DNA from: Naegleria gruberi
Taxonomy: Eukaryota
Length of the DNA stretch: 64,000 bases
Direction: 5' to 3' (one strand)
Assembly (NCBI GenBank): GCA_000004985.1
Contig: GG738927.1
In this document: piece by piece, positions 3,001 to 60,404 of the stretch
How positions within the stretch are numbered: the stretch's first letter is position 1
How the letters are laid out: every line of letters begins with the position of its first letter
The notes under the pieces: model-generated
The model's database searches: none
Told to the model about the DNA's origin: nothing
The model's input: the letters and a program-made list of their open reading frames with translations, nothing else
Position numbers and translations under genes: made by a program

Positions 3001-3178
3001 TTGATTTGTAATTTCTTCTCTTATTACTAGGGGAAGAATTCGAGTAATTTGAAAAAGCCGAAGCAGATCGTGTACTCGTTGCACTCATTGGAGTTGTCAC
3101 TCCATTGTTTGTAGTCTTAGCCGGAGGAGATGATGACCGACTACTTATCATACTACTATTATTACTAATGCTCGTCAT
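1..3178 (-). CDS. Long coiled-coil protein with Ser/Arg-rich C-terminal region; 3' end runs off window (partial)
   Basis: By-eye translation of the minus strand from ATG at 3178..3176 (in-frame TAA immediately upstream) reads open to position 1 with no stop (about 1059 codons). Heptad-rich K/E/L composition (e.g. ...LQLKKEQEMESNKENH..., ...KLTAQLDEAQAKIKDFEDPEKIKE...). C-terminal part has SRSNSRGNSRTNSRTSSRSSSR. Absent from ORF track because no stop lies inside the window. The + strand ORFs 21..329, 450..653 etc are antisense noise. Confidence 0.55.
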   Translation of the reverse strand, partial: MTSISNNSSMISSRSSSPPAKTTNNGVTTPMSATSTRSASAFSNYSNSSPSNKRRNYKSNNSNQNSSASLVSKTTDPDDNESMLGYLDQMSQIPSTASPSPLLLPLSTKFKSQKILNTNTPQFQSALKEIKTLKNQAPTKETLRRVAHEIKDKKIIAKLAQLHLDVVEQRRKEAKEQGVTFSEFGATGKVATDDDGNDETLDFIEQVVKRLSEHLEFTKVELFKKVDIITTTDEDVFLDNFKKNVVEKLEKKQSGTGSIIKTDEEIQSFFDERINLVFKFWQQEFVLRLKSSLQLKKEQEMESNKENHDSNLIGIDKHRKLQVENQVLNSLVEKRDKMLEEQRTEYFKEILCLKEELTKLNYQYVPPSYFPENFDAVLTLSFLEDENIKELNQILLQTKNALDDRDNEIRNLLNSINTFQADTFEKLKKHSQTNTDLIEKLMETANAFKFKAQRLYGDNNIPHDQYQSLLDKALQLEKENEKIKRELSALQNIQKAQAMVAMEEVAIPPVNIATPALNKSGSATERSPGSVEADEDDDTVSVTSATTTFTNYTTTTSQAPNNINASVFNVGEGDEITPIVVNPVVSQLKKQIRSKEKRITKLTAQLDEAQAKIKDFEDPEKIKESIMKPLRKYKAYRELIVALETETFILQKEIDKSHIREDDLTRTKNNLLFKIEDLTTRLRELNEWKDEYQRTYVDKTQYYINEIERLKRDMADKDDLLTVQESHILDLSNENIKLNTEITKLLSKISYLRSEISDLQSDLAEKNKAVIPPEPVIERVIETVEKVVEKYVSPPPIERSDSGVQTDFPKTVFKELKPDELENEIELTISTSNPTLSIASFDQTNKVSSRKSNIPVSSRSTIDNNPISSRNPNTNLGTALKSLKPDDKSKSSANTSRGNIPTSMNTTRSTNSTQDITIPSPKITPEVVEQVPKPKEEPIQTVEIDESDPDYDFHKFKTKLQQEEARIKEEQLQKEKEAEPKQQSKSNRSSRSNSRGNSRTNSRTSSRSSSRNTNSRSSSVVALSSPLTVVTPEPGEEALNETQSTASPTTPLNEDTSVL

Positions 3179-3442
3179 TATTTACAATTCTTAGTTGTTG
3201 TTATTGATGATGATTATGTACATGATATATTCGTTAGTGATGAACCTAGATGCTTGCAGATAATTTTTTAAAGATGAATTTCAATTACTTGAATTTTGGC
3301 GGGAAAATTAAAAGGCTTGAAATGAAGATAAAGGGAACGATTAATATTGTTGACGATAAATATCAATGATGATACGATATCCAATTTGTCATCTCAATAA
3401 TAATTTAATATAAATATAAATAATTAATATTTAAATAAAAAA

Positions 3443-10073: not shown

Positions 10074-11862
10074 ATGCAACAAGATTCAAGTAGTAACAGT
10101 TCTAATGATGAGAATAAATCTCCTCCACCAACATCATCATCAGCATTTGTCACATCATCATCAGAAGCTGGATTGGAGGCTAATTTATCACCAATTTCTT
10201 GTATTTGCTGTAGAAAGGCCCACAAACGTTGCGATCGAAAGTTTCCCTCATGTTCGAAATGCATTCAGAGAGGAGTTGATTGTTTTGTAGGTTTAATTTA
10301 AATTGTATATACTGATTATAAATTAAAGTATAATGAACCTAAAAAGAGAGGAAAAGCCTCGGAAACCTACAGACAAAAGAAGAGAATTAAACAAGATGGA
10401 ACTGAATTAAAGCAAATTGTTCATTACTATTACTCGTACATGGCAGGTGGTTATCCAATTATTGTCAAGGCAAAATTAGAATACTTTATAGATGAATATT
10501 TGACACAAATTGAAAATAATGATGAATTTACAGTTGAAAAGAATCAATATATTACCAGCGAGCAAGAATTGAATGCAATTTATTCATTCTTCTTGGCAAT
10601 CAAGGGTATTTATTTTCAATTGAATGCCAATTTACCAAAAGCATCTGAAACAATTAGTATGTGTGAAGAGTATTTGGGGAAATTGTTGACCAAATCAATG
10701 CAGTTCTACATTTATGCTGCATGTCAAATGGTGGCAGTTTATTATAGTGGAGCAGGGGATCTTTCAAAAGTGAGATTCTATGACACGATGGTGAATTATT
10801 ATTTGAATGGAAATGAGAAAACAGTTTTTGACAAGTATGAGGAGAATATGAGGAAGAGAATGACATGCCTTTCAAAATCATCAACTGATTTCTTGGATGA
10901 ATACTCTGGATTCTTTAAAAAGATGCCAACCTTTTTCGAACATTCAGTTGCCCGTAAGCTTCAGGATTTGTTACTTCCTGGAACTCTTGAATATTTACAG
11001 GTAGCTCCAAAAACATTAGAAGGTTATGCATTCTTCAAAAAGGTCACAGAATTTACATACAGAGTTATGGGGCAATATCATAACGATATTATTAAGGAAA
11101 TGAAGGATTGCCATACGAACGATTTTTTCAAATTCGAACAAGTGCACAAAACTATTATGTATTTTGGATTTCACCTGTACTATCTGAATGCAATACCCTA
11201 TATAACACCTCAACTTGAAGAAGTAGCTCTCAAAATAACAGTTTCCACTGAAAGTGAATATTTCAAGTAAGTTTAGTTGATTTGCAAATAATTTAACTCT
11301 CAAAAGCTACGCCATTCCAGAGGTGCTTATTTCAGTGAAAGGTGCAGCTCAAGTTCATTTAGACATTTGTAAAGAAATAGAGTCTGGAAAGAGACAAAAC
11401 AATTCTACACTTCAAACAGATGGAAAAATACTAACTTTGGATTATTATTCGGTGCTGGAAAAGGATGTCAATGCTCTTACATCGTTACAGAAAAAGTACC
11501 CAAACAGAGTGGCTGATCTGTGTGAAGATTTACTGGCAAACATGAGAAATTTATTAAGAGCTCACAATGAAAGACTGATAAGATTTTCCACACAGTTCAT
11601 TGAAGAAAATGATTTGGAACCAATTGCCAATAATGAACATTGTAACAGTGATTGTTATAGTGATCAATCCAATGATTTGACACGTTCAGATGAGACGGTT
11701 AATTGTACTGAAGGACCAGCAAAGTGGAATTCTCTCATTCACTATTTGGAAGCTATTGATGGAGAATTAGGCAATGTATCAGGCAATAACAGTACCACCG
11801 AAAATACAGATTTCATACCATCAAATGATAATGAGCTAGACCTTGATCAGTTCATAATTTAA
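10074..11862 (+). CDS. Zn(II)2Cys6 binuclear-cluster transcription factor, paralogue A; 3 exons join(10074..10286,10329..11266,11307..11862), 568 aa
   Basis: Exon 1 encodes CICCRKAHKRCDRKFPSCSKCIQRGVDC, which is CX2CX6CX6CX2CX6C. Donor GTAGGT at 10287 and acceptor AAAG|TATAATGAACCTAAAAAGAGAGGAAAAGCC at 10329. Exon 2 ends ...EYFK with GTAAGT donor in phase 2, and exon 3 starts at 11307 (YAIPEV...). Exon phases and total length (1707 nt) are consistent. Exon-intron positions are identical to paralogues B and C. Confidence 0.75.
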
Positions 11863-27333: not shown

Positions 27334-29712
27334 TTAATTCCAGTCTTCTTGATCTTCATAGATTGTTTCTGGTTCGTCATCTTCAAAGGTTGGGATTGGT
27401 GAGGTTGGTGTTGATTCGTCTGGTAAATGAATGACCTTGAATAGAATCTTTGGTGTTTCACTAATTTCTATAAATGAATGTCTTGCTAGCTTACCAATCT
27501 TGGTAATGATAAAGCTTCTCAACTTTTTCGATTTGATTGATAATTTTGATTTAAGCTCCTTGATAGAATAAACTAGGAAATGCTTCAAGTGATCCATTTG
27601 CTCCTGTAAGATTATGCTAAAATAGCTCATATCCCAAATTTTGATTGATTGTAATTGTGTCATACCAGTTAAATCAACTTCAGCTCCTTCAATGTTACAT
27701 CTATTCATTTCCAATATTTTGAGATTGGGTATTTGTACAAACTTGAATTTGTGTGGACCTTTCAAATATAAATATTGCAGTGATGTGAAAGAGTGTAAAC
27801 TCAATGCTCTCTGATTGTAGACGAGAGAGTTAATATTGGAGACAAGGTTGAATTTCTTGGAGAAAATATCGTGAAGTAAATCCTCAGTGACTGGAGTAAG
27901 TTGTGTATCAATATTGTAAACGTAATCTTCATGAACCACAATCTTCAAGTTCTTCAGGTTGGAGAATTGAGAGAGGAATGCACAAAACTTTCCAGAAATT
28001 CTCGCCAAGTCATCTTGTTCGTGTTGTTGTAAAAATAGAGATGGAACTGACACTGATGAAAGTGAAAGTTTAGCTGTCTCGTCAAGATGAATGTTATGGC
28101 AAAATTCAAACTTTTCCACTCTAGACGCAATCAATTCAAGGTTTGAAATATTTCCTGAAATGTGTATGTGAGTCTTGGAAGATTTTGAATAGTCAATATC
28201 TAAATCGTTGCATTTACCAACATCCACATACACAGAAGTTTCTTGGTTAAGGGATTCGTTGAAATTCAGTCCAATTCTCTTTACATTTCTTCCTTTGATG
28301 GTGGCTTTACTACCAATATTATAAACAGTTAATTGAATTGGACAATCTTCAATATAGAGTTCAGCGTCGGATCTAATATTGAGAGCTTTCATTCGATTCA
28401 ATTTCTTTTTGAGAATCAACTCGGGTACTTGTTTTTCCTTTTGTTTCTTTGTCTGCACCTCTGATGGTAGCGAGCTAAATAGTACTGTCTTTAATTTTTC
28501 GTGCTTATTCATCCAAAAGTTGAATAGAGTCTTTTGATCCGTTAAAGAATTCCCAAAAGTATCATAATAAAAGCATTCCAAATTTGGGAATGGTTTTTGG
28601 TTTTCTGTTATCACACAAGAAATTTGTAAATCCAACTTCTTGAGTTTAGGTAGTAAAATACCATTGAAACAAACAGAAAAGGTTACCTCTTCAAAAAAAC
28701 CTCCAACATTAATATTATCCATCACCGTCAAATCTGAAACAGAATGAGGCACTACAAAAATCTTATAATCACCTGTATACCTTTTGGCGTTTGGATTATT
28801 TTCTAACTGAACCGAACAACAAGTTTGCAAGCATAACCGTTTGAGAACTGTTAAATTTGGTGCCAATTTGTTCCAATTCTCCAATGATTTGTGTTGGGTA
28901 TTATCAATACCAATATTTTTGAGTTTTGGTGCTATACATAAAAGCGACTCGTATAATTCGTCCGTAATAGATAAGCATTCCGAACATAATTCAACAGTTT
29001 CTAATTTCGATAAATTTTTACAACTCTCAACAAAATTCTTAATAAATGATTCCCTTGGAACTTTTGCCTCTTTTGGCATGTCCAAAGCTATCTTTCTCAA
29101 ATTACTTCCAACTGGAGTGTGAATAATAGAGTGTGGATCCACAAATCCATCGAAAATATCCAAACTATCTAAATGGGAGAAGGATATCTTGGATTTTTCA
29201 ATAAATGTCTCCATTCTCAATTTTACATCAACCGGATACATTAATAGGTAAGACAACATGGTAGTATTTTCGGACCATAATTTCATAATTTCATCAGGTG
29301 AATCATCCACAGGTATTGGTATTTCTAATTTTCTAATCAATGACAAGTCGCAAAACGACTGCAACCACATGATGTATTCTTTTGTAATTTCCTTCAACAA
29401 CGAATAATAATAATTTCCATTTTCCTGATCCACAGAACAATTAGAAAATTCCTTTTCGCAATCAAAAACCAAAGGAAAATCTTCCACAAAATAGGTTGAT
29501 ACAAAAACTGTAAATCTAGCAAAGACCGAACTCCAAAAAAACGAATTATTTCTCATCCTCTCTCTCAATGCTCTATTTGTATGAGAAATAGCCAACAAGT
29601 CATTAAACCCAGTCACTTTCCTTGTCTCGGCACTCGGTAATAAATAATAGAAAATATGGTCAAATATTTCATAAGGTAAATCCTCTATGCTAAATTGTGT
29701 CATTTTTTTCAA
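27334..29712 (-). CDS. F-box-like N-terminus plus degenerate leucine-rich-repeat protein, 792 aa
   Basis: N-terminal FSIEDLPYEIFDHIFYYLLP (F-box-like LP.EI...IF..L). Long C-terminal region with irregular L-x-x-L-x-L repeats (LKNIGIDNT..., LTVLKRLCLQTCCSVQLENN...). Single ORF. Confidence 0.55.
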   Translation of the reverse strand: MKKMTQFSIEDLPYEIFDHIFYYLLPSAETRKVTGFNDLLAISHTNRALRERMRNNSFFWSSVFARFTVFVSTYFVEDFPLVFDCEKEFSNCSVDQENGNYYYSLLKEITKEYIMWLQSFCDLSLIRKLEIPIPVDDSPDEIMKLWSENTTMLSYLLMYPVDVKLRMETFIEKSKISFSHLDSLDIFDGFVDPHSIIHTPVGSNLRKIALDMPKEAKVPRESFIKNFVESCKNLSKLETVELCSECLSITDELYESLLCIAPKLKNIGIDNTQHKSLENWNKLAPNLTVLKRLCLQTCCSVQLENNPNAKRYTGDYKIFVVPHSVSDLTVMDNINVGGFFEEVTFSVCFNGILLPKLKKLDLQISCVITENQKPFPNLECFYYDTFGNSLTDQKTLFNFWMNKHEKLKTVLFSSLPSEVQTKKQKEKQVPELILKKKLNRMKALNIRSDAELYIEDCPIQLTVYNIGSKATIKGRNVKRIGLNFNESLNQETSVYVDVGKCNDLDIDYSKSSKTHIHISGNISNLELIASRVEKFEFCHNIHLDETAKLSLSSVSVPSLFLQQHEQDDLARISGKFCAFLSQFSNLKNLKIVVHEDYVYNIDTQLTPVTEDLLHDIFSKKFNLVSNINSLVYNQRALSLHSFTSLQYLYLKGPHKFKFVQIPNLKILEMNRCNIEGAEVDLTGMTQLQSIKIWDMSYFSIILQEQMDHLKHFLVYSIKELKSKLSIKSKKLRSFIITKIGKLARHSFIEISETPKILFKVIHLPDESTPTSPIPTFEDDEPETIYEDQEDWN

Positions 29713-30285
29713 TGTTTTTCATGATTTTTGCAAACCTTTATTTTCTAAATTTCCATCCTTGTGTGATGTTGGTTGTTAAATTTCTTTCCTCAATAATATA
29801 ACACAACATGTCTAGATGAATTGATGATCGGGTAGTAAATAGATATACCCAGAGAATGCATTCCGAGACAAGCTTGAATGTTCTTATTTTACAGTAAATA
29901 ATTTCTTAGTATTCAGATACTAACGATCATACAACATGAACTGTCCGCATTGTTGTAGCTGCCTTAAGTTCGGTTTACGAATCATGCTAAGGTAATAGAA
30001 TAATCAATGCACTTAATTGAGAGTCGTTGAAAAGGAATATTGAGTTTCATGTGTTCTAATATCGAGAGCTTTGTGATCCAAGAAATAAAAAATTGGTACC
30101 TACTCTCCCCTAGGCTTTGAAATAATTCCATCATCAATTTGTTTTTAATATATTAAAATTGAACACAAGGATATTGGAAATTTCATCTAGGAGAATCCTA
30201 CTAGATAATCATTTAAAAGAGAGTGTAACAATATTAAATTTTGAAACTCTACATCATCTATTCAATTTGTAAATAATACTTTTGG

Positions 30286-31047
30286 ATGAGAAGGAATCAA
30301 GAAGACTCGGATGTTGAATTGAGTGTTAGATCAGAGGTCTCCTCTGTAACTAGTCTAGGAACAGCAATGATTGCTGAAGAACAAGAGGAAAGTAGGAAGG
30401 AATGTAAACGAAAGTCTATCTTTTTATGCATATTCACAGCCTTCTTCCTAATGCTAGTCATTCCACAGTTGAGTTTATTCATTTACTTTTACTTGACCGT
30501 TGATAGTGATCCATCATTGGCCAATGATCCGAATGCTCTAGTTTTTCGACATTCTAATTGTTGTACAATAGAAAATAGTTTTGTAGATTGTTTTACAAGT
30601 CTGAAGGATACATTCTGTTCCTTCAATATTACATTCCCTGTGCAAGGGTTTGATGAGGATAGTGACCCAGATGCAATTAATGATTGTGTAATTGCTCCTA
30701 ACACAACTTTTAGAACACGAACTGATAGTATTACATACAAGATGAATGTTGGTTCCGAAGATTACATCAAGTATGCAACTAATATGCAAAACAGAACCAA
30801 AATTGAAAACATTTCATGTTACACAGATAGGACAGAGTCTTATGTGAGTGTAAATTCCATATCTAGGCTATATAATTCATACTATTTTGCAATGATTGCC
30901 ATGGGTATTCTAATGTCTGGTTTTTGTTTGGCTATTATAATTGGATGGATGGTCATTCCCTTCATCAATTTGAAAAGAGATGGTCCTAGGAGAAGGAAGA
31001 GAAATAGACAAGCAGCTGCTAATATCATCAATACTGCTAACAGATGA
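30286..31047 (+). CDS. Hypothetical membrane protein with Cys-rich ectodomain and C-terminal TM plus basic tail
   Basis: 253-aa ORF. N-terminal hydrophobic segment (IFLCIFTAFFLMLVIPQLSLFIYFYL), several Cys, second TM (YYFAMIAMGILMSGFCLAIIIGWMVIPFI), RRRKRNRQ tail. No domain recognised. Confidence 0.4.
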   Translation: MRRNQEDSDVELSVRSEVSSVTSLGTAMIAEEQEESRKECKRKSIFLCIFTAFFLMLVIPQLSLFIYFYLTVDSDPSLANDPNALVFRHSNCCTIENSFVDCFTSLKDTFCSFNITFPVQGFDEDSDPDAINDCVIAPNTTFRTRTDSITYKMNVGSEDYIKYATNMQNRTKIENISCYTDRTESYVSVNSISRLYNSYYFAMIAMGILMSGFCLAIIIGWMVIPFINLKRDGPRRRKRNRQAAANIINTANR

Positions 31048-35185: not shown

Positions 35186-37561
35186 CTATTGCTGATTCCA
35201 TTTCCTCCAATAGCAAGTGAGTAGTGATGTAATGCAATAGGTAGAGATGGTATTTCTGAAAGATTGAATATTGGCTGTCTTGTGAGCTTCAAACTTTTCA
35301 TAGAGTTCAAACAGATTCTTAGATGGATAGTCATTTGGATCAATTAGCAAGTACTCTCTCAATTCTAAAATCTTTTCATTCAGTAATTCAATGAAAGTCT
35401 CATTGGAAATATCTGATTTGAAAATGTCAAAGATGGTGTGATATTTCTGTATTCTAAGGTTTTCGTTTTGATTTTGAAGGTCGTACATCCCTAATGAAAG
35501 AAGAGCCATGTTACAGATTACAAAATAAATAATTGAACTTACATTCATTCTCCTCTATTGCTGATTCTCTAATTAATTCATAAACAGAGGAAACTGTGTC
35601 AATGGTTGTGAGTTGACTCTTGAGATTATTCTGCATCATTGTCAAGAATTTCTTTCTTAATGGATCTGAATAGAACTCTTTCCACAGGTCGTGAAAGGAA
35701 GTACTTGTTCGATTCCTTAAAGGTTGATTCATCCACTAGAATGTTAATCTTCAATTGATTGGCCAATAAGCTCAAATTCTTTGCAATCACAGTTGACTCT
35801 GAAACAATTGAATAATATCTGAATGATCGTGTTCCCAAGTTTCCTACATGACAATTCTCATTCGTTGAAATTCCCATTGAAAAATTGAACGATTCCACCT
35901 TTTCTGAAGACAAATCTTGTTGAGTATTCAAAGCTTGGAATCCTCTCTTAACTTTAAGAGCAGTTACGGCAATGTGTTTATGTTCTCTTCCAGTATCGAA
36001 TACCAAAACATACTCTGATATGGAAACAACTTGTAAATTGGCTTGGAATTGTTGAGCTGCACTTCTAATGACAGATACTATTTTAGGGAATGTTATTGAA
36101 ATTTCCTCTATTGTGTGCATGTCAGTATATTGAGGGAGAGTAATATTCAAAACACTGCATTCCTTCTTGTTGAGACCCATCCTGAATAGAGAGCTGGTGC
36201 TTCCCTTAGAGGAGAGTGATGCTTGTCTCTTAATGAGACTTTTCGAATTGGAATGTTTGAAAGATGAATAGTTTGATCTATTATCTGATACGAAACCCTT
36301 AAATGACTGGTCTGCTGTTGATTTTGTGTCGATGGAATACTTTTCTGTGTTGGATATTGGTGCCTGTCCATGGTGGTGATTGATGAGGGATTTTCCATTG
36401 TTCAGCTCAATTAATTCCTTTTCAGTCTTTTCAATTTCGTCCAATTGATTAACAACAGTATCAGGGAGGAAACTCTTAATTTCCGATAGACATTTAACAG
36501 TGGCTGCCAAACTTTGATAAATACTTTCAATTTCAATAAACATTGAAGAGTTTCGTTTCACATTTGCCAAATCAAAAACTTGAATCAATGATAATTGTTT
36601 CTCCAAAAACAATATTGGTCTAATGGCTATTCGACTAAGTAAAATTCTATATAAAACACTAAACACCAAAATACCAAAAGCAACACAAATGGAAGCTATA
36701 ATACTATTGTGAGCTGTTTTGGAAATATCATCAGAATAGACAATAATAAACTGTCGCCATGCAATATTCTCATTGGTGTAATTAGAAACTGAAACAATAT
36801 AAGAAACACCTCCACTTGTAATTGAAAAGAAGGATGGCAAGTTATAAAAGTCATAGCTTACAGCAATTGACTTCATTAAAGCTCCTGCATTTCTATCTGT
36901 GAGATCAAAAACACTGAGGGCCTTCTTTCCATCCTCACTAGTTGTTCAAATACTTCCTGCAATAGTTGTTGGACCATTCATTTCAGTAAGAATTGTAACC
37001 TTGATCTAGAATTTTCACCTCCTTCAGAAAGTCAGAAAAGAGAATTAATGGAATTGTGCATCTGCAAATTCCTTGAATAATCTTACTTCCATTCATTCTC
37101 AAAATCAATGGATCGAATAAAGGAGTTGCATATGGAAGAGCAATACTTCCATTAATGATATAGAATGGAGATGAGAAAACTCCCTCAGTTTTCAATTTTT
37201 CAATATTTGTTAAGGTGTCCAATATTTCGTTTAGTAATTTGGATAAACGTTCTCCTTTTTGATTTCTTGATCTCGGTTCCAAATCTTCTGCTGATGTTGT
37301 AGATCTCTTTGTTGAGGTAGTTGTAATATTTGTGGATGTACATTCATTACATTGTAAACCAGCACTCTATTTAATTTCAATGGCTGGTTTTTTTGTTGAC
37401 TTTTTTGTTGTACGTGGATTAAATTCTGATGACTCATTGGACATTTCTGGTGAACTGTTACTGGCTCTATGAGTTTGACAATTTCTATATTTTTGAAAGT
37501 CTGTTTTGATTTTCTCGACTTGAATTGAGAGTTTGAATTGTTCGTATAATTTCTCTAACAT
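35186..37561 (-). CDS. Receptor-like single-pass membrane protein: periplasmic-binding-protein/ANF-receptor-like ectodomain, TM, and C-terminal region resembling a degenerate class III nucleotidyl cyclase homology domain; multi-exon, bounds approximate
   Basis: Minus-strand exon ORFs at 37561..37367, 37437..37231, 37282..36983, 36876..35626 (extendable upstream in frame through ...DGKKALSVFDLTDRNAGALMKSIAVSYDF...) and 35548..35186. TM segment IIASICVAFGILVFSVLYRILL. After the TM: ...HIAVTALKVKRGFQAL...FNFSMGISTNENCHVGNLGTRSFRYYSIVSESTVIAKNLSLLANQLKINILVDESTF, which parallels the cyclase block [35 protein letters not shown].G....I.VSE.T. The metal-binding Asp positions appear substituted. Assignment rests on pattern memory only. 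Confidence 0.4.
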
Positions 37562-37913
37562 CTCTAGACCATATGTTGTTCTTCTCTGGGTTTTATCTTG
37601 TTGTTACATTTCTGATAACAAATTCGATCAACGGAGGAATTTATTATTTATTCAATAACTAGTGATTTGTAAAGAAATGTAATGCAGGATTGTAATATAT
37701 ACATCTCATAGGATATTCTCTCTTCGAATGATATCTCCAGAGTGGTAGCATTCCCTGGGAGAGGTTCTCAAACATTAACAATTTACTTCGTATGTCGGCA
37801 AGAAATTTTAAAAAGTTGGACCAAAAATTTTTATTTTACAAAATTTCCTTTTATTGCGAGCTACAGTGCCACCTTAATTCCGTTTGGCGCTAATAAAAAT
37901 CTGATTAAAAAAA

Positions 37914-38900
37914 ATGGATACCACTGATGAACCAGAGTTCGTATTTGACAATGACTACATCCAGCATGTAGATATTGCCATGGACTACGCTGACAGCGGG
38001 GAGTGTATTTTTTCTGATAATGAAGGCAATCTTCAAGGAAGTATTCACTTAATCACTGAAAGTCATACAAGCAAAACTTTGAGCGGCAGTGTGAAGAAAG
38101 CCATTCAAACTTCCTCCCGATCTGTGTGCCGTCTCTATGTACTATACAAGTCAGATTGTAATAAGGGTATAAGATCATTTGGTACAGCTTTCTTTGTATC
38201 TGAGTCATTATTAATGACTGCCCAACATTGCATCAAGCCTTCTCATACAATAGATGGGGTCGTGTACTTCTTAAAAAGTACATACATTGATCTTTCCTGT
38301 TGTTCTAGAGACTCACAATTTGAAATTGATGACTCTAGTTTGATAAAGAAGGTGCAAATTGTAGATAGAAGCAATTTTGAGAAAGATATCCAACAATTGA
38401 AGATGCCTGGAAAGGATGTTCCATGGAAGACTAGCAACGACTTCGCATTTCTAGAACTTGACCAAAGGAACCTCACCACCCCCTTCATACCTGTTGAAAC
38501 AACATTAGAGGGTAATCAGTGTTATGTTATTGGGTATCCCGGCACTATTTCTATTGAAAAATTCAAAAAGGATTATTGCAGAGATTTAGATGATACCAAA
38601 TCTAACCAATTGTGGGGAAAAGTTCAGCGTGAAATGGGCTATTTTGAATGCAAAATTGCCAGCCAAGGAACGTTTCAAGTTAAAACTGGAGATTATTTGT
38701 ACACACATAATTGTCCTACTTTGTGTGGAACAAGCGGTGCTCCGGTTGTAAATGAAAATGGGAAGTTAATTGGAATTCATGTGGGTGGAGACTATGCATT
38801 ACACAATAATTTCTGGATAACTATTTCCAATCAACATTTGAAGAGTGCTCTCATTTCTATGAAAGTTTGTTCTGATCAATCCTTTGTATCGCTCCAATAA
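37914..38900 (+). CDS. Trypsin-like (chymotrypsin-fold, Trypsin_2/PF13365-like) serine peptidase, 328 aa, no signal peptide
   Basis: FGTAFFVSESLLMTAQHCI (His-box TAxHC) and CGTSGAPVVNENGKLIGIHVGG (Ser-box G-[DT]-SG-[GA]-P followed by G.H.G, typical of HtrA/V8-like trypsin_2 domains). Confidence 0.55.
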   Translation: MDTTDEPEFVFDNDYIQHVDIAMDYADSGECIFSDNEGNLQGSIHLITESHTSKTLSGSVKKAIQTSSRSVCRLYVLYKSDCNKGIRSFGTAFFVSESLLMTAQHCIKPSHTIDGVVYFLKSTYIDLSCCSRDSQFEIDDSSLIKKVQIVDRSNFEKDIQQLKMPGKDVPWKTSNDFAFLELDQRNLTTPFIPVETTLEGNQCYVIGYPGTISIEKFKKDYCRDLDDTKSNQLWGKVQREMGYFECKIASQGTFQVKTGDYLYTHNCPTLCGTSGAPVVNENGKLIGIHVGGDYALHNNFWITISNQHLKSALISMKVCSDQSFVSLQ

Positions 38901-39440: not shown

Positions 39441-41480
39441 TTATTGGTAGTGGAATTTGGTAGAAGAAGTGGGAATTACAGGAAGTTTGATTCTAGTTTC
39501 GGTACATTCGTGTGTAGAGAAATCTCTTCTCTTGATATCCTTGTGGCAAGAAGGACAATGAGTTTCATATTCTGAAAGATCAACTTGTTTGGCAACTTTA
39601 AGATCATATTCCAATTCATTTCCAGAGTGGCAGATTTGATTATGTTTGGAATAGTCGCATCTCTGTACGAGGCATCCACAATAGAGACAGATGATGCTCG
39701 AAGTTTTCAACCTGTTGGAAAGGTCTCTTCTCTGCTCTAGGATTTCATCAATTGATTGGGAATAGTCAATTGGCTTTACATTTTCGAGTGACTTATCCAT
39801 AAGTACTTGACTTTCTAACACTTGCAAGTCGACCTTATTTGCATATTTTGATTGCATGCTTTGCAGTGCTGGAGTGTGCTTTCTTGGCACGAGGCATACT
39901 TTTGCTGGTTTGGCATATCCAGACATAAACTCTAATAATTTATCCAATTCTGGGTTTTGTTCTCTGCAGTCGCCATATCCTCGAATACACAAACTCTTAA
40001 GGAATGAACGTCCTGCCCCGCCCTCTTTAAATACAAATAAAAGAGTCTCGATTAGTTTGGAACTCAATTCGCCATATGAAAAAGAACGAATGGATAGATC
40101 CAATTCCTCTAAGGTCTTTAAGGAATACAAGCTATTTTGCAACAAGTCAATATCATTTTCATTATCCACATGACATGAAAATAGCTTAATATTTGGGAAG
40201 TGTGTTATCCATCTATCTATTCTATTGGTAAAGAATGAACGTCCCTCCAATTTGAGTTCCAAAACATTTGGAAGTTCTTTCAGGTTTGGATCTGAGGTGA
40301 GGAATATTGGAGAGCTGTGTCTCATCAATGCAAAATCAAAGACACCGTCCAGATTTATGGACAGCTTCTTGACGCATTTGAATTTTGCTAAGAGTTCCAG
40401 AAAGGCCTTCGTCATTTCCACTGTATCAAAAATAGACAATGATTCTTCCCAATACGAATATTGAACTGTTCCAAGTGTAACTTCCAGCTCCTCCACAATA
40501 TTATTTGAGGTAGATGAGAGTTGATTCAACTGAGCTGCTTTGGTATAATTGAGATGAAGACTCAATTTCTTACAATTAGAAAGATTATTCAATTCAAAAA
40601 ACTTTGGTCCAATATACATTGATTCCAATACATTTGATGCAATACTATATTCAGTGTCATGATATAGATATTTGAGATTTTCAAATTCTGAAGTATTGGT
40701 AAGTAAAAAACCAGTGACATTGTCAAGGACTAGATTTTCCAACTTGTCCTTCACCCAATCAAAACACTGACAAAAAGGTTGATCAACCTTACATGTTTTC
40801 AATACTACTGTTTGTAAATTATCTTTACAAGCTTTGAATAAATTGCAAAATGCATTCGAATCAAAATTAAAATCCAACTTGATGAATGAACAATTGGTTG
40901 GATAGGATGTTTCCATTGAGAATGTTGGTTCTGTGAAATAGTTTGGCAAGTAGTTGACCACTCTTTGTGAAAATTCCTTCTTTCTTTGTTGATGAAGAGA
41001 TGGGAAATGAGTATTCCTTGGACGTGATGGAGCATACCTATCTAGATTAGCTTCCTGAATACTCCCATAGATGAATAGATTGAAAATCTTCATCCTATTA
41101 CTCTCCACAAACTTGTGCAAATACTTTACGAAGGGAATAATATCCTTCTCAATCATCATGTGTTTTTGATATTGCTCCTCCTTCTCACTACTAAATAAAT
41201 GATCAAAATCACCACCATACAAATCAATATTCGGATAGATGTGCAATGTATTAATTTGTTGAATGATAATTTCTCTCCATGATGAACACACCCGAGGAAT
41301 GATCATCATGATTGATCTAAAATCCAGATAGGATATGATTGAGTAGAGTACTTCTGGAGGAACCCTCGAATGAAACCAACCACCTGATCGTTGTTGCTCA
41401 TCTTCATCATTCTCTTCATGAATCGTTGTTCTTGTTATAGGAGATGAATTGAACATTTTTTTGATTCTGTCTTCAATCAA
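39441..41480 (-). CDS. F-box protein with LRR-like middle and C-terminal TRAF-type/C2HC zinc-finger-like Cys/His cluster, 679 aa
   Basis: N-terminal VPPEVLYSIISYLDFRSIMMIIPRVCSSWREII (canonical F-box). C-terminus CLYCGCLVQRCDYSKHNQICHSGNELEYD...HCPSCHKDIKRRDFSTHEC (two C-x2-C...H-x3-C units as in TRAF-type zinc fingers). Confidence 0.55.
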   Translation of the reverse strand: MIEDRIKKMFNSSPITRTTIHEENDEDEQQRSGGWFHSRVPPEVLYSIISYLDFRSIMMIIPRVCSSWREIIIQQINTLHIYPNIDLYGGDFDHLFSSEKEEQYQKHMMIEKDIIPFVKYLHKFVESNRMKIFNLFIYGSIQEANLDRYAPSRPRNTHFPSLHQQRKKEFSQRVVNYLPNYFTEPTFSMETSYPTNCSFIKLDFNFDSNAFCNLFKACKDNLQTVVLKTCKVDQPFCQCFDWVKDKLENLVLDNVTGFLLTNTSEFENLKYLYHDTEYSIASNVLESMYIGPKFFELNNLSNCKKLSLHLNYTKAAQLNQLSSTSNNIVEELEVTLGTVQYSYWEESLSIFDTVEMTKAFLELLAKFKCVKKLSINLDGVFDFALMRHSSPIFLTSDPNLKELPNVLELKLEGRSFFTNRIDRWITHFPNIKLFSCHVDNENDIDLLQNSLYSLKTLEELDLSIRSFSYGELSSKLIETLLFVFKEGGAGRSFLKSLCIRGYGDCREQNPELDKLLEFMSGYAKPAKVCLVPRKHTPALQSMQSKYANKVDLQVLESQVLMDKSLENVKPIDYSQSIDEILEQRRDLSNRLKTSSIICLYCGCLVQRCDYSKHNQICHSGNELEYDLKVAKQVDLSEYETHCPSCHKDIKRRDFSTHECTETRIKLPVIPTSSTKFHYQ

Positions 41481-41949: not shown

Positions 41950-43530
41950 TTAATCATTAGATCTACGCTTAGACATTGGTGAAATGAAGGATCTGAGAGC
42001 ATCAGCATTATTGGCTTGAGCAGGCTTTCTGTGATTGAGTGGAACATACTTTCTATGGTCAATACCAGTATAGACTTGCTTTGGTCTGAAAATCTTGACT
42101 TCAGGATCTTCCAAACTTTCAATCCAGTGAGCTAACCAACCAGCACATCTTGGAATGAGGAAAAGAACTGGATAATAGTCAGCTGGGAAACCTAAACACT
42201 TGTAAACCAAACCAGTGTAAAAGTCAACATTTGGATACAATTTACGTTCCTTAAAGTATGGATCATTGAGGGCAATTTGTTCGAGTTCAACAGCAATTTC
42301 AATCATTGGTTCCTTGCCCAAAACTTGGAAGACTTCATCGGCAACCTTCTTGACAATCTTGGCACGAGGGTCATATGAACGATAAATTCTGTGACCAAAG
42401 CCCATCAATTTCTTCTTTCTTTGTTTGACTTCTTCAATGAATTTTGGAATATTTTCCTTTGTTCCAATTTCTTCCAACATGTGAAGAACAGCTTCACAAG
42501 CACCACCGTGCAATGGACCATACAAGGCACCAGCTGTTAATTTACATTCCATTAAATTATTATAGAAATATTAAAATATATCATTTGATATTTTGATAAA
42601 TTACTTACATGCACCAGCAATTGAGGTGTATGGATCAACTCTACTACTGCTCAAGTGACGCATAGCAGCAGTGGAACAGTTCATTTCATGTTCTGCGTGA
42701 ATAATCCACAATTTTTCAAGAGCACGAGCAAGAACTGGATTTGGATGATAGTTGACTTCACTCAATCTGTCCAACATGTACAAGAAGTTACCAGTATAGT
42801 TAAGGTTATTGACAGGATTATTGTAAGGTTTACCAATTCTGTGACGATAAGCACTGGCAGCAATGGTTGGCAACTTTCCGAGAATACGATAAATTTGCTT
42901 AAATCTAAGTGAGTCAACCTTGACACAATCCTTATCAGCACCCTTCAAGAACAAATCAGATCCTTGGAGGGATGGATTAGCATCTTCATAGAAAGTACCC
43001 ATGGCAGCAATTGATGAAATAACCATTCCCATAGGGTGAGCATCATATCTAAATTGTTTCAACAAGGTGACCATGTTTTCGTGGAGATAGGAGTGTTTAG
43101 TAACTCTTTCTTCCCATAAATTCAATTGATTTCTATCTGGAAGTTCACCATTGATTAACAAGAAGGCAACTTCAAGGAATGATGATTTTTCGGCCAATTC
43201 TTCAATATCATATCCACGATAACGTAAAATACCTTTTTCACCATCAATATATGAAATACTACTTCTAGAAATGGCTGTATTCATAAATCCAGGATCCAAA
43301 CAAACAAGATCCAATTGTTCAAAAGCAACTGATCTGATGGCATTTCCTTCTTCTACATTAATTTTGATGATTTTTCCAGTCTTTGAATCCTTAACTTCAA
43401 GGAAACGTTTTTCACCAGGATTTGATGGAGCAGTAGCACTAGTCAAATTAGTGCTCAACATTTCTCCTCCAACAACTTGAGGCATCAAGTGTTGTTTAAT
43501 TGATTGCATTCTACGTTCAGCTGAAGACAT
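41950..43530 (-). CDS. Citrate synthase, bacterial/glyoxysomal type II, with PTS2-like N-terminal extension; complement(join(41950..42533,42609..43530)), about 501 aa
   Basis: Exon 1 has [32 protein letters not shown] and [30 protein letters not shown]. Exon 2 has [22 protein letters not shown]...[18 protein letters not shown]...[36 protein letters not shown]. These are the catalytic His/Asp context of GltA-type citrate synthase. A 75-nt intron (GTAAGT...AACAG) in phase 1. The N-terminal [15 protein letters not shown] fits the PTS2 nonapeptide pattern R-x-x-x-I-K-x-H-L. Confidence 0.85.
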
Positions 43531-44018
43531 TTTTATATATTATTTACAATAACTTGAAATGATGATGATTAGAGTGTGGTATTTTGAAAAATTATACAAA
43601 GTATTATATTCTAATAATACAATGAGAGAGACGGAGGAGGACAGAAAGGGACAAAGTGTGTTTGCTTCTCTGTAACAAAGGAGAGATGGTAGGAACTTTT
43701 TTTTGATAAATTTTTTAAAGCCTTGTTTGATGTTTGGTTGTTTCTGTCTATTGGTTTGCTTAAGAAACGGAGAATTGCAAAATTGTTTGTCGCTTGTTTC
43801 GTGCTTAGTCAACGCGTGGAAGAAATAACAAATCTCCGAAGGCCATTTACTGTAGAGACAAAGAATCCATTGTAAACATAGAGTCAATTAAAGATATTTG
43901 TTGTAAATGGCATAAAAAACATGATTAGAGTATCAAGCTTTTGAAGCGTGTCAGAATTTGCCATTTCTGATTCATTTTATTCAGTCAATTGTGAACTCAA
44001 AAGGTAAAATTGTAAAGT

Positions 44019-57678: not shown

Positions 57679-60404
57679 ATGCAACAACAAGTCTTAGAGG
57701 ATGATGTGAAGGATAAACATTATCATTCGGAAGAAGGCTTGGATGATGGCAGTAGTAGTAACAGCAAAACTTCATCATCAACTTTATCTACTAATGTTAA
57801 TAGTAATAATACAACGACAATAAGAATGGAAAATTCAAAGAGTAGTAAGAATATGGCGGTGGAGGAATCGGTGGTCAATCAGGATAACAATATTGGTGCT
57901 AGTAAGAATGATGTTAATAGTAATATGCCAACAATTGTTATTCCTCATTCTTCGGAGAGTAGTAATTCAACAATTGCACATCATCATTTGCCCTTCAAAG
58001 TTGTAAATAACATCCACAATGAAAAAAGAAATAATTCTGTAGATTCCTTCTCCTCTGTGAGTATTTCTCCAACGACACCATCCACTGCTGGAAGTAGCAT
58101 TACTGTAAATTCAAATATTAGTTATAATAATAGTCGATTTGTAAATACGAATTTCACTTTTGGTTCATCAGGCTCTTTGACATTGACACCAACTGGTATT
58201 CACTCTCCTTCAATTCAAAATTCTGCCTCTATGAATAATTCAACAGGTACACTTCCGAGTGTTGATTCACAAAATATACATTTTTCAATGCCAATAGAGC
58301 AAGGTGGCCAATCCTATCAAAACTTGTCTGTGGATACTTCTCATCCTGAATTTTTACCTGCCACCAAGTTGACAGGAACTAGTAATTCTAGTTTTGGATC
58401 GTTAATCAATGGAACAAGTACCCAAAACAGAAGTGTTCTCTCAGTGAGATCAGTTGGCTCAAATATTGCCTTTGTGCCATCTCCTGGTTCTTCCAAGACA
58501 ATAATTTCTCCAGTGGCAGTTTCTTCATCAGTTTCCTTCGCAAATAATACAAAGAATAATACCATAAGCGACCCAGTTGCATTGAAAGGTACTGAATATT
58601 ATCATCATGATGAGGATGAAAAGGACGATTTTAAAAATGATGAAATCTCTACCTTTAAGGATGTGGATTTGAATCAAGAAGTTTCCGATGAGGATGATGG
58701 ATCGTCTCATAGAGATTCAATTGATACTAACAGAAAGAGTGTGGAATTGTTACTCAAGGATATTCCAACCTCTACTGGTAAAAGTGATGATTTTCATAGA
58801 GAACGATTGTGGAGACATTTCACTAAAACTAATATTGCTTTTGGTGTTTACAATTTAATTAATGATGTTGTATCACCAGCAACAATTAGTTCAGGTTATA
58901 CTGTCGCTCAGTCTGGTATTGGCGCCTATGTTTTAACATTGGTCATTGTTGCCTGTTTGATATTTTTCACGTTGATAATTCTCTATGATATGGCTAATGC
59001 ACAAAAAGTTACGAGTTTTCCTTCATTGATTAAGAAAACTTTTGGAAATATTGGATATATTTTGATTTGCATATTTATATTTTTGTTCAATTTTGGAGCT
59101 GTTTGTTCTGAACTTATTGAAATTTCTCAAATTTTGCCTGATTTATTGTATGAGCTTATTGGAAAGGAGTCAGTTTTCATTTCAAGATATGCTGTACTTG
59201 TTTATGTAACCATTATTTTGTTACCAATTGCATCTATGAAGCAATTATCAAGCTTCAAGTATGCTTCCCTCATTTCTGTAACTAGTGTTGCCCTAATTTC
59301 CATCTTATTGACCTATGAGCTTGGTCTCGGTAGAAGAAAGGTTCCTTACAATGATTCAGTTTTTGATTTTTTAAGACCTCAATATTTGAGCGCTATGGGA
59401 ACCTTGAGTTTTGTTTTTGTTTGCCATGATGTAAGTAGTATTACACTCATACTGATTCCAATAATTCCTAAAATCAATAGGTGAGTTTTGAGGTGATTGG
59501 ATCACTCAAAAACAATAGTAGAAAGCGTTACATGATTCTTGTATTTTGCATGCTTCTTTTGGCTGTTGGAGTTCTTCTTTTTATGGGACTTTCGAGCTTT
59601 TTATTGTTTTTCGATGTCAATTTGAAGGATGCCAATGTTTTGGATTTATTACCAAAGAATTATGGATTGGCGATTTTGGCAAGAATTCTCCTTTGTGCCT
59701 CTCTTGGATTATCAATTTCCTACACTTGTTTCATGCCTCGATTTGCCCTTAAGTCAGTAATCAAGACAATTTTGCAACAATTCGACGAAGTTAAACAACA
59801 AAAGGAACAATTCAAAACAAAACCATTCACTAGTGAACCATCCGACGAAAATACAGTTACTGAAAGTGAGCTTACTGTAGTGAGTGCTGGAAAGGACTCT
59901 GAAGAGGAGGATGCTGCAACAACTAGTGTCAATGAAACTTCACCAACAAGTGAAAATACCAAACACAAGAATGCAGTCTTGGCAAGTATTTCCAGATTCT
60001 TTGCCACCAGAACAGGAAAAGACGCTCTCCACTACGGAACTACCTTAATAGTTGTCCTGTCTGCTTTCATTGTTGCAATACTTGTGGAAAATTTGGGAGT
60101 TATTATTGGACTCACAGGAGCCATCAGTGCCACAACCATCGCTTATATTTTCCCAAGTTTGACCTACATTGTTTTGGAGAGAAGAGAACGAAAGGAAATG
60201 ATTGCAAAACTATTGGAAAAACAAGATTATGAAATGGTCAAGAATCACAAGGAAGCCAAGTCAACCAATACCAGCAAGAATATCAAACTTTCACTTCCTT
60301 GGACAAGAAGGGCTGCTGTGGCCTTCTCTTATTTTGTCTTGTTGACTGGATTTGCCATTCTTGTATTGAGTTTATCGAGTATTATTTATTATGCAGTTCA
60401 ATAA
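57679..60404 (+). CDS. Amino-acid transporter, Aa_trans (SLC38/AVT-like) family with long Ser/Asn-rich N-terminal extension; join(57679..59430,59481..60404), 891 aa
   Basis: After ~390 low-complexity residues the sequence reads NIAFGVYNLINDVVSPATISSGYTVAQSGIGAYVLTLVIVACLIFFTLIILYDM... (TM1-2 of Aa_trans), ...LGTLSFVFVCHD|VSFEVIGSLKNNSRKRYMILVFCML (Aa_trans FAF.CH motif spanning a 50-nt GTAAGT...AATAG intron in phase 0), ...LIVVLSAFIVAILVENLGVIIGLTGAISATTIAYIFPSLTYIVL (TM10-11). Confidence 0.75.

Follow-up and report, generated by a model that had tools for sequence, protein, structure and literature searches.

Bacterial class III adenylyl cyclases of the dCache_1-(HAMP) type, such as Rv2435c of M. 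tuberculosis and the metagenomic proteins P0063, P0074 and P0090, are built from a first transmembrane helix (TM1), a double-Cache sensor, a second transmembrane helix (TM2), a HAMP-like linker, a cyclase homology domain (CHD) and a short helical tail. The same order of parts, at a similar length, characterises the Heterolobosean gene family to which the Naegleria gruberi locus analysed here belongs, and the family is similar to the bacterial proteins along its whole length, being homologous to them in both the ectodomain and the CHD. However, the bacterial enzymes keep the canonical catalytic residues, which the Heterolobosean family has lost, and the copy at this locus, which appears to be frame-disrupted, is additionally missing TM1 and the distal Cache module.

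In Naegleria, a single Cache cyclase of bacterial type has already been reported (Upadhyay et al. 2016, PMC4822843), and at least 81 cyclases have been counted (PMC9928731). The family described here shares with this cyclase expansion the host organisms and the CHD superfamily, but it lies mostly below the Pfam thresholds for both dCache_1 and Guanylate_cyc and is devoid of the catalytic residues.

Animal receptor guanylyl cyclases (GC-A/NPR1) follow the same single-pass receptor logic with a C-terminal CHD, and a fold match to 9bcv was obtained. They differ in having a type I PBP ectodomain in place of Cache and a kinase-homology domain in place of the HAMP-like linker, and their catalytic residues are absent at the locus; only the transmembrane segment and the CHD fold are shared, with no specific relationship beyond the CHD superfamily.

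The non-catalytic halves of other enzymes, namely the C2 domains of sAC/ADCY10 and of mammalian AC, likewise have the cyclase fold without the full catalytic set. In C2-type domains, Asn, Arg and the specificity residues are still present and contribute to a shared active site; in the family, neither the C1-type nor the C2-type residue set is found, and therefore no active site could be completed with any partner. Degenerate GGDEF/EAL sensor proteins signal by binding rather than by catalysis, and the family may be conceptually alike. A literature search on described cyclase pseudoenzymes found nothing specific.

Gene family, ectodomain and membrane-associated region

The locus occupies positions 35186-37561 on the minus strand of the window, the whole 64,000-nt stretch of N. 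gruberi nuclear DNA that was analysed, and runs from an ATG at 37561 to a TAG stop at 35186-35188. It is a real gene-like locus, as the initial annotation held, and the peptides quoted in its support (HIAVTALKVKRGF, FNFSMGISTNENCHVGNLGTRSFRYYSIVSESTVIAKNLS, LNITLPQYT and SEYVLVF) are all encoded within one open frame at 35626-36945 (-). This frame comprises 439 codons in DNA of 34% GC, where a stop is expected about every 13 codons, and contains a 416-codon annotated model: the core of the locus, 35626-36876 (-), is a 100% match to a 416-aa 'predicted protein' of N. gruberi that carries no domain annotation.

At E<=1e-3 a phmmer search recovered 294 relatives, the strongest of which, apart from the protein itself, reached 3.4e-72. 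The top relatives are 34-42% identical across the whole ORF, and no ortholog closer than ~42% identity to the locus protein was found. These top relatives belong to N. lovaniensis, N. gruberi, N. fowleri and Willaertia magna; several of them are named 'Guanylate cyclase domain-containing protein', and the family member XP_002676245 is annotated 'Adenylate/Guanylate cyclase [Naegleria gruberi]'. A homolog search by word index found nothing beyond the protein itself, or just three proteins when the family alignment was used, and the family was recovered only by exhaustive HMMER search. The family alignment comprises 42 clusters at 50% identity from Naegleria and Willaertia. The proteins, ~800-860 aa in length, consist of an N-terminal tail, TM1, dCache_1, TM2, a HAMP-like linker, the CHD and a helical tail of ~130 aa. 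The locus retains 51 of 66 family-conserved positions (77%), compared with 70-95% in intact members.

The ectodomain at the locus begins with the start of the membrane-proximal Cache module (36995-37243 (-), frame 1; …EGVFSSPFYIINGSIALPYATPLFD…GICRCTIPL…KILDQGY), which tblastn aligned with homolog residues ~221-288. The remainder of this module (ILTEMNGPTTIAGSI*TTSEDGKK…NIAWRQFIIVYSDD) follows at 36715-36993 (-), as delimited by the homologs and by the AF2 model, in which three beta-strands precede the TM helix. Comparison of the family ectodomain with the bacterial dCache_1 cyclases by hhalign gave a probability of 99.0% (E 5e-18, 310 columns). In Pfam, dCache_1 (PF02743) produced weak matches in 8 of 39 family members; the bacterial relatives score 41-94 bits, most of them above the 45-bit cut-off, and one of these cyclases has a clearly prokaryotic gene neighbourhood. 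A Heterolobosea-only ectodomain profile found nothing significant among PDB sequences (6mni, E 0.85), and the Cache assignment therefore rests on the hhalign comparison with the bacterial relatives and on the sub-threshold Pfam matches. In intact members dCache_1, a sensor type with two PAS-like modules on a long N-terminal helix, is located between two TM helices; at the locus only the part at 37243-36715 is present, and neither TM1 nor a distal module is detectable. Read against its homologs, the ectodomain is best described as the membrane-proximal remnant of a dCache_1 sensor, which replaces the PBP/ANF-receptor-like domain initially proposed.

A Kyte-Doolittle scan identified exactly one hydrophobic segment at the locus (36637-36714 (-)), in agreement with the single TM originally suggested; it corresponds to TM2 of the family, whose intact members have two such segments. 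This helix is followed at 36394-36636 (-) by a HAMP-like helix-loop-helix (RPILFLEKQL … SMFIEIESIYQSLAATV) and then by a signalling helix. The AF2 model contains the helices H48-99 (long, covering the TM), H114-134 and H139-161, all with pLDDT>84. Residues S111, E115, L130 and P138 in this region are invariant in the family, and the motif RP…S-F-E…I…L is conserved. Pfam HAMP (PF00672), a helix-connector-helix of ~50 residues that directly follows a TM helix and has a conserved Pro and Glu, has no match in the family, one bacterial relative scoring 23.5 bits against a cut-off of 25, and the domain is putatively designated HAMP-like from the predicted structure and the motif only. A low-complexity linker at 36190-36393 (-), predicted to be disordered (residues 166-225, AF2 pLDDT<50), leads to the CHD.

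The cyclase homology domain and its catalytic positions

The main part of the CHD is encoded at 35668-36189 (-), as delimited by the family profile against PDB, Foldseek and the residue table, while its end, in frame 0, was located at 35543-35628 (-) by tblastn and homolog alignment (…TIDTVSSVYELIRESAIEENE and the first base of a Trp codon). In an alignment with CyaB, RPVDR…VYEL marks the end of the cyclase domain. The initial annotation had proposed Pfam searches and a structure prediction as checks. No Pfam family, Guanylate_cyc (PF00211) included, matched the ORF, the stitched protein or the isolated domains, even at E<=10; PF00211 matched 15 of 39 relatives (best 4.1e-8). The single protein had no phmmer matches among PDB sequences; a profile of its Naegleria-only relatives had 27, all of them class III cyclases (best E 2.5e-8), and the top PDB match of the family profile is the C2 domain of soluble AC.

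An AlphaFold prediction from the single sequence was unusable (pLDDT 39), and an MSA-based AF2 model was used instead, with a pLDDT of 83.7 overall and >90 across most of the CHD. In a Foldseek search against PDB, Cya2 (2w01, E 3.4e-10, target TM 0.71-0.76, rmsd 2.5-3.5 A) was followed by CyaB, CyaC, sAC, Rv1625c and AC C1; every one of the best 50 matches is an enzyme of the nucleotide-cyclase fold, and almost all are class III adenylyl/guanylyl cyclases. Superposition of the model on Cya2, CyaB and CyaC gave TM values of 0.7-0.76. AF2 and Foldseek both return the beta-alpha-beta-beta-alpha-beta fold of the cyclase domain rather than an unrelated one. The C-terminal domain is a class III CHD on the combined evidence of transitive sequence homology, with phmmer similarity far beyond chance, family-profile matches to solved structures and the predicted fold, and this element of the initial annotation is borne out.

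All six catalytic and specificity positions are replaced in the CHD of the locus (Asp1 by T, Lys by V, Asp2 by S, the specificity residue by S, Asn by V and Arg by N). The metal-binding Asp pair (F-x-D-x-x-G-F-T and G-D), whose loss had been noticed initially, indeed reads Thr and Ser; of the 42 family members, none has kept Asp1, and 29 have D or E at Asp2. The transition-state Asn/Arg (V-N-x-A-x-R) are Val and Asn at the locus, and Asn is found in four and Arg in one of the 42 members, never together. The base-specifying pair is Lys and Asp/Thr for ATP, or Glu and Cys for GTP; Val and Ser occupy these positions at the locus, and Lys occurs in none of the 42 members, which have Ile/Val there. 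No family member among the 42 aligned clusters keeps the full catalytic set, and not one of 90 Asp1-less domains has both Asn and Arg. The canonical Asp/Asp/Asn/Arg and Lys/Thr residues are present in 47 relatives found, which are bacterial proteins. Hardly any variation is seen in the family at the GN-G…R motif of the beta4-beta5 region. Judged by its residues, the CHD is probably catalytically dead. With no catalytic residue left in this domain, the locus is therefore a probable pseudogene and not an animal-style receptor.

Lesions and the surviving intron

The upstream part of the locus, an open frame from the ATG at 37561 (37244-37561 (-)), is of low complexity, encodes no TM segment and is interrupted by an in-frame TAG at 37367-37369 (-) inside this non-homologous region. 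No similarity to the N-terminal ~220 residues of the family was found in 37244-37561, an HMM run against the six frames of 37100-38000 gave at best 1.6 bits, and homology detected by tblastn with the homologs begins only at ~37243-37183. The first ~220 family residues, which comprise TM1 and the distal Cache module and correspond to ~660 nt of coding sequence, are gone. Neither a second copy nor a missing 5' exon was found elsewhere in the 64,000-nt window. An extra match at 30868-30981 reflects TM-helix similarity and was judged spurious.

Within the homologous part, a first frameshift is located at 36994 (-), where one orphan base replaces one codon of the homologs (GY-V/I-ILTE in the family, GY|A|ILTE at the locus). 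The effect is that of a 2-nt deletion, and the alignments change frame between 36995 and 36993, skipping exactly one residue. An in-frame TGA at 36946-36948 (-) occupies the N/K/R position of the family motif AGSINTT, and the homologs align straight across it. A second frameshift, from frame 2 to frame 0, falls at 35629-35667 (-), within the loop of the final beta-hairpin of the cyclase domain: the frame-2 sequence RPVERVLF is followed by homology in frame 0, with VSSVYELIRES (family TVYExIKE). This lesion cuts the domain before its last strand, and the annotated ORF ends at the TAA at 35626-35628, just past the frameshift interval. Short introns at 36994 and 35629-35667 were considered and rejected, as no GT..AG of plausible size is present and the homologs are collinear codon for codon. 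An alternative genetic code with ciliate-type stop reassignment was also discarded, since long ORFs elsewhere in the window follow the standard code and end mostly in TAA.

A genuine 52-nt spliceosomal intron (GTAAGT…CTGTAAC…TTTCATTAG) is preserved intact at 35491-35542 (-). Its removal joins frame 0 to frame 1 and restores the family motif DEWxYEL as ENE-W-MYDL, the Trp codon being split across the splice junction; its size and ends are identical to those of three other introns at ORF junctions of the window. Downstream lies the C-terminal helical tail (MYDLQNQNENLRIQKYHTIFDIFK…DPNDYPSKNLFELYEKF…; 35186-35490 (-)), which tblastn aligned with homolog residues ~735-835 (E down to 1e-7) and which ends at the TAG at 35186-35188.

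After three frame repairs (at 36994, at the TGA and at 35629-35667) and removal of this one intron, the conceptual protein forms a single HSP with homolog residues ~221-835 (E 7e-127; 627-660 columns). The locus is not a single clean spliced ORF, and the initial annotation had missed both the frame disruption and the 5' truncation. The lesions, read from a single assembly, are defined against intact homologs, and homology runs across them; in sequence, the locus has the character of a frame-disrupted, 5'-truncated copy of a family gene, that is, of a pseudogene.

Origin of the locus and significance of the family

The locus is probably a degenerate paralog of a Heterolobosea-specific gene family, most likely a recently inactivated one. 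Intact members of the family would sense an extracellular ligand and, given the loss of catalytic residues, would signal, if at all, without synthesis of cAMP or cGMP; their output may proceed via CHD dimerisation or partner binding. The copy described here would have lost its ~220 first codons and suffered the 2-nt deletion at 36994, the TGA nonsense mutation and the further frameshift that truncates the CHD. Together, the 439-codon open frame, the 77% of conserved residues kept and the intact 52-nt intron indicate that the damage is young. We infer that the lesions exist in the organism and do not stem from the assembly, and that the locus yields no functional receptor.

A wider interpretation appears unlikely, namely that the whole family is a lineage-specific, ligand-sensing pseudo-cyclase expansion derived from a bacterial dCache-HAMP adenylyl cyclase, with the fold kept for dimerisation or output, and that the 416-aa product of the locus is an expressed truncated decoy. 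Members of such an expansion could, for example, pair with active cyclase monomers and silence them. Also unlikely is the proposal that the annotated 416-aa ORF (36876-35626) is a functional, N-terminally truncated gene. Its product would cross the membrane once, carry a short stub outside the cell besides the HAMP-like linker and the pseudo-cyclase domain, and could work without ligand as a decoy or partner of full-length members. An open frame of this length at 34% GC would be consistent with such a gene, as would the share of conserved positions, which is within the range of intact members, the confident AF2 folding of the TM, HAMP-like region and CHD, and the existence of an NCBI gene model. 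However, the ORF starts in the middle of the Cache beta-sheet, and on either side of it family homology carries on in other frames, which makes its start and stop a consequence of the lesions. Its stop also deprives the product of the final CHD strand and of the conserved tail, although the intron of the tail is intact.

The preferred reading, an inactivated paralog, also has to be set against sequencing or assembly errors, which would account for the frameshifts and stops in a gene intact in the organism, the 5' loss being a mis-join or collapsed assembly. This is improbable: four independent defects within 2.4 kb would be needed, among them a base substitution that creates TGA and a missing ~660 nt of coding sequence, while the locus contains no Ns, the flanking genes read cleanly and the annotators' model also breaks off at these lesions. 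On the other side, two of the frame changes are in or near A-rich runs, and the rest of the locus resembles a healthy family member.

It is very doubtful that the CHD is an active enzyme with non-canonical residues, producing cAMP, cGMP or another nucleotide. The frequent D/E at Asp2 (29/42), the nearly invariant GN-G…R motif and the presence of a cyclic-UMP synthase of the same fold among the Foldseek matches might point in this direction, but Asp1 and the base-specifying Lys are absent from all 42 members, Asn from 38 and Arg from 41, the 90 Asp1-less domains never combine Asn with Arg, and the locus copy has Ser at Asp2 too, in a domain that is cut short. An animal-like receptor with a PBP/ANF-receptor ectodomain, one TM, a dead cyclase domain and no kinase-homology domain has almost nothing to recommend it beyond the single TM and the dead cyclase domain, given that Pfam finds no ANF_receptor (PF01094) or Peripla_BP match in the locus protein or 39 relatives, that the ANP-receptor PDB profile matches span residues 843-994 only, which is its cyclase domain, and that the ectodomain columns match dCache sensors, with the hhalign probability given above.

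The result is mainly corrective. A 'predicted protein' of N. gruberi without annotation becomes a disrupted dCache/HAMP/cyclase-homology gene, and the animal-like ANF-receptor architecture proposed for it can be dropped: the dead cyclase homology domain of the initial annotation stands, its animal-like ectodomain and framing do not, and the arrangement regarded as unusual outside animals (dCache-TM-HAMP-cyclase) is a standard bacterial type. About 80-100 cyclases and one Cache protein are attributed to Naegleria. Of the Cache-linked 'cyclases' recovered in this analysis, a considerable proportion have retained none of the catalytic residues; their Cache domains are also too diverged for Pfam, and therefore the counts of both cyclases and Cache proteins in Heterolobosea may need revision. 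The members of the family are candidate pseudoenzyme receptors, which gives them some interest for the study of protist signalling; if true, a pseudo-cyclase expansion would mean that Cache receptors of a eukaryote have acquired a new signalling output that involves no catalysis.

Organisation and disruption of the locus

The locus on the minus strand extends from an ATG at 37561 to a TAG at 35186, and every peptide quoted for it in the initial annotation was found there. The product of its central ORF (35626-36876) matches a 416-aa N. gruberi 'predicted protein' with 100% identity. A word-indexed protein search with the locus protein yielded no match besides itself; an exhaustive HMMER search yielded 294 relatives at E≤1e-3, including 34 at E≤1e-30. 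The closest relatives, from N. lovaniensis, N. gruberi, N. fowleri and Willaertia magna, are ~830-860 aa long and 34-42% identical to the locus protein, and the 439-codon open frame (35626-36945) corresponds to their residues ~305-725. No ortholog above ~42% identity was present in the databases searched. UniRef names several relatives 'Guanylate cyclase domain-containing protein' and one 'Adenylate/Guanylate cyclase'. The remoter relatives are metagenomic proteins of ~700 aa with strong Pfam matches, of 41-94 bits to dCache_1 and 70-91 bits to Guanylate_cyc; one of them has HicAB, Wzy and AbiEi genes as neighbours on a 111-kb contig, a bacterial gene context.

In tblastn comparisons of homologs with the window, a single collinear gene was spread over several frames of the minus strand: homolog residues ~221-288 at 37192-36995 (frame 1), ~290-707 at 36993-35665 (frame 2) and ~735-835 at 35512-35231 (frame 1 again). 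At position 36994 one codon is reduced to a single orphan base (GY|A|ILTE against the family G-Y-V/I-I-L-T-E), which reads as a 2-nt deletion. An in-frame TGA at 36946-36948, one mutation from an Arg codon, occupies the N/K/R position of the family motif AGSINTT. Past RPVERVLF, the homology shifts to frame 0, where VSSVYELIRES aligns with the family TVYExIKE, where the cyclase domain has its final strand; since no plausible intron lies between these two peptides, a second frameshift must fall within 35629-35667, and it creates the TAA at which the annotated ORF stops.

Frames 0 and 1 are linked by a 52-nt GTAAGT…TAG element at 35491-35542. Its removal restores the conserved DEWxYEL as ENE-W-MYDL, with the Trp codon straddling the junction, and the element resembles, in size and ends, three other short GTAAGT…YAG introns placed exactly at junctions of adjacent ORFs in the window, namely, 54 nt at 11267-11320 (plus strand, unnamed gene 10440-11862), 50 nt at 59431-59480 (plus strand, Aa_trans transporter gene 57679-60404) and 75 nt at 42534-42608 (minus strand, citrate synthase gene 41950-43539). 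On both grounds the element is a real intron. The 120-aa minus-strand ORF 35186-35548 opens with a hydrophobic stretch, 'MNVSSIIYFVICNMALLSLG', which resembles a signal peptide but results from translating this intron. In N. lovaniensis, the closest homolog gene (3001-5556 of the genomic record L001) is an uninterrupted, intronless 2556-nt ORF, indicating that the family has gained or lost an intron.

The repaired conceptual protein aligned with residues ~221-835 of homologs in one HSP of 627-660 columns (lowest E 7e-127). The first ~220 residues of the family (N-tail, TM1 and distal Cache module) were absent upstream of ~37243, searched over 670 nt to the divergent neighbour, and elsewhere in the window; the upstream frame from the ATG is low-complexity and carries a TAG at 37367-37369.

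The cyclase homology domain

Pfam searches at E≤10 detected no Guanylate_cyc domain (PF00211) in the ORF, the stitched 644-aa conceptual protein or its isolated N- and C-terminal pieces, which, taken alone, speaks against the cyclase homology proposed in the initial annotation, but the predicted fold does not. The locus protein found nothing among PDB sequences with phmmer, and its single-sequence AlphaFold model (pLDDT 39) was uninformative. PF00211 was matched by 15 of 39 close relatives (best 4.1e-8). A profile of the Heterolobosean subfamily only, with no canonical cyclase put in, matched 27 PDB sequences at E≤0.01. Every one of these is a class III cyclase, with soluble AC (C2 domain, 2.5e-8) and CyaB (5.3e-7) at the top. 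With the family alignment, AlphaFold gave a mean pLDDT of 83.7, exceeding 90 across most of the domain, and the top Foldseek match in the PDB was Cya2 (2w01; E 3.4e-10, target TM-score 0.71-0.76, rmsd 2.5-3.5 Å, ~186 columns), followed by CyaB, CyaC, soluble AC, Rv1625c, bPAC and mammalian AC. The predicted fold is therefore not an unrelated one, and profile and predicted fold agree on the cyclase homology of the C-terminal domain.

The six defining catalytic positions were set by canonical relatives inside the same alignment. All are replaced in the locus: metal Asp1 by T, the base-specifying Lys by V, metal Asp2 by S, the second specificity residue by S, and the transition-state Asn and Arg by V and N, respectively. 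The loss is family-wide: among the 42 closest family members Asp1 and Lys are kept in none, Asn in four and Arg in one, the Asp2 position being D or E in 29. Asn and Arg occur together in 0 of 90 Asp1-less domains; the complete Asp/Asp/Asn/Arg set is kept in 47 distant relatives. Under the established two-metal, interface-site mechanism of class III cyclases, a domain with neither the C1-type nor the C2-type residue set would be unable to assemble a full active site, whether it homodimerises or pairs with a partner.

Ectodomain and membrane topology

The ectodomain had been assigned to the PBP/ANF-receptor type; however, no ANF_receptor match was found by Pfam (E≤10) in the ORF, the stitched protein or its isolated pieces, and a broad family profile matched the ANP receptor in the cyclase domain only. 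The same profile matched solved dCache sensors (6mni at 3.9e-11, 6iov, 3c8c) and alpha2delta Cache domains. Sub-threshold dCache_1 matches occurred in 8 of 39 relatives (best 2.7e-7) and an MCP-like PDC match in one of the 39. A Heterolobosea-only ectodomain profile, too diverged, had no unaided match among PDB sequences; hhalign of the family ectodomain against bacterial dCache_1 cyclases gave 99.0% probability (E 5.2e-18) over 310 columns that take in TM1 and the entire ectodomain. In intact members, ~310 residues lie between two TM segments; the locus has a single TM segment. Its TM helix is followed in the AlphaFold prediction by a HAMP-like helix-loop-helix that carries a conserved RP…S-F-E motif, although Pfam gave no HAMP match in this region. 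Cache-cyclases are standard in bacteria. Of the initial annotation, the gene locus, its single TM segment and the catalytically empty cyclase homology domain stand, while its reading of the ectodomain, and of the whole as an animal-like receptor, is wrong and gives way to a bacterial-type dCache-TM-HAMP-like-cyclase-homology architecture.

The plus-strand ORF 30277-31047 (256 aa, no Pfam match) has two hydrophobic segments, and its C-terminal TM segment resembled three family members around TM2 (tblastn, 36-39 aa, 36-42% identity); homology was rejected, the matches being judged compositional.

Status of the locus and its family

The window is AT-rich (GC ~34%) and gene-dense. Its genetic code is the standard one, TAA being the main stop codon, and its genes are of typical eukaryotic kinds (Sec15, a WD40/Sec16-like protein, F-box proteins, citrate synthase and an amino-acid transporter). 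Two large minus-strand ORFs, 27334-29718 (794 aa) and 39441-41480 (679 aa), have an N-terminal F-box match and are otherwise empty in Pfam. The divergently oriented neighbour of the locus is a plus-strand gene (37914-38900) for a 328-aa trypsin-like serine peptidase (Trypsin_2, E 2.9e-16) without an obvious signal peptide, the two ATGs lying only ~350 nt apart.

Of the family positions conserved at ≥70%, 51/66 (77%) are kept in the ORF, at the low end of the range of intact members (70-95%). At the base composition of the window, chance alone cannot keep a frame of 439 codons open; therefore, either the lesions are recent and few in number or the central ORF remains in use. The best explanation of the locus, judged from its sequence, is a 5'-truncated, frame-disrupted and probably recently dead member of the Heterolobosean family.

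That family (relatives P0002-P0045, from N. lovaniensis, N. gruberi, N. fowleri and W. magna) comprises 42 aligned clusters at 50% identity, with ectodomains that are homologous to dCache_1, though most fall short of the Pfam threshold, and cyclase domains all devoid of the catalytic residues. At least 81 cyclases have been ascribed to Naegleria (PMC9928731), and a single Cache-domain protein has been reported from it, a 'bacterial-type adenylate cyclase' (Upadhyay et al. 2016, PMC4822843). Dozens of Cache-linked Naegleria proteins below the Pfam threshold and without catalytic residues appear not to have been described before in the literature. While the locus itself is ordinary, some novelty lies at the level of the family, whose sequences identify it as a set of putative bacterial-type dCache-TM-HAMP-like-cyclase-homology receptors that have lost the cyclase catalytic residues family-wide.
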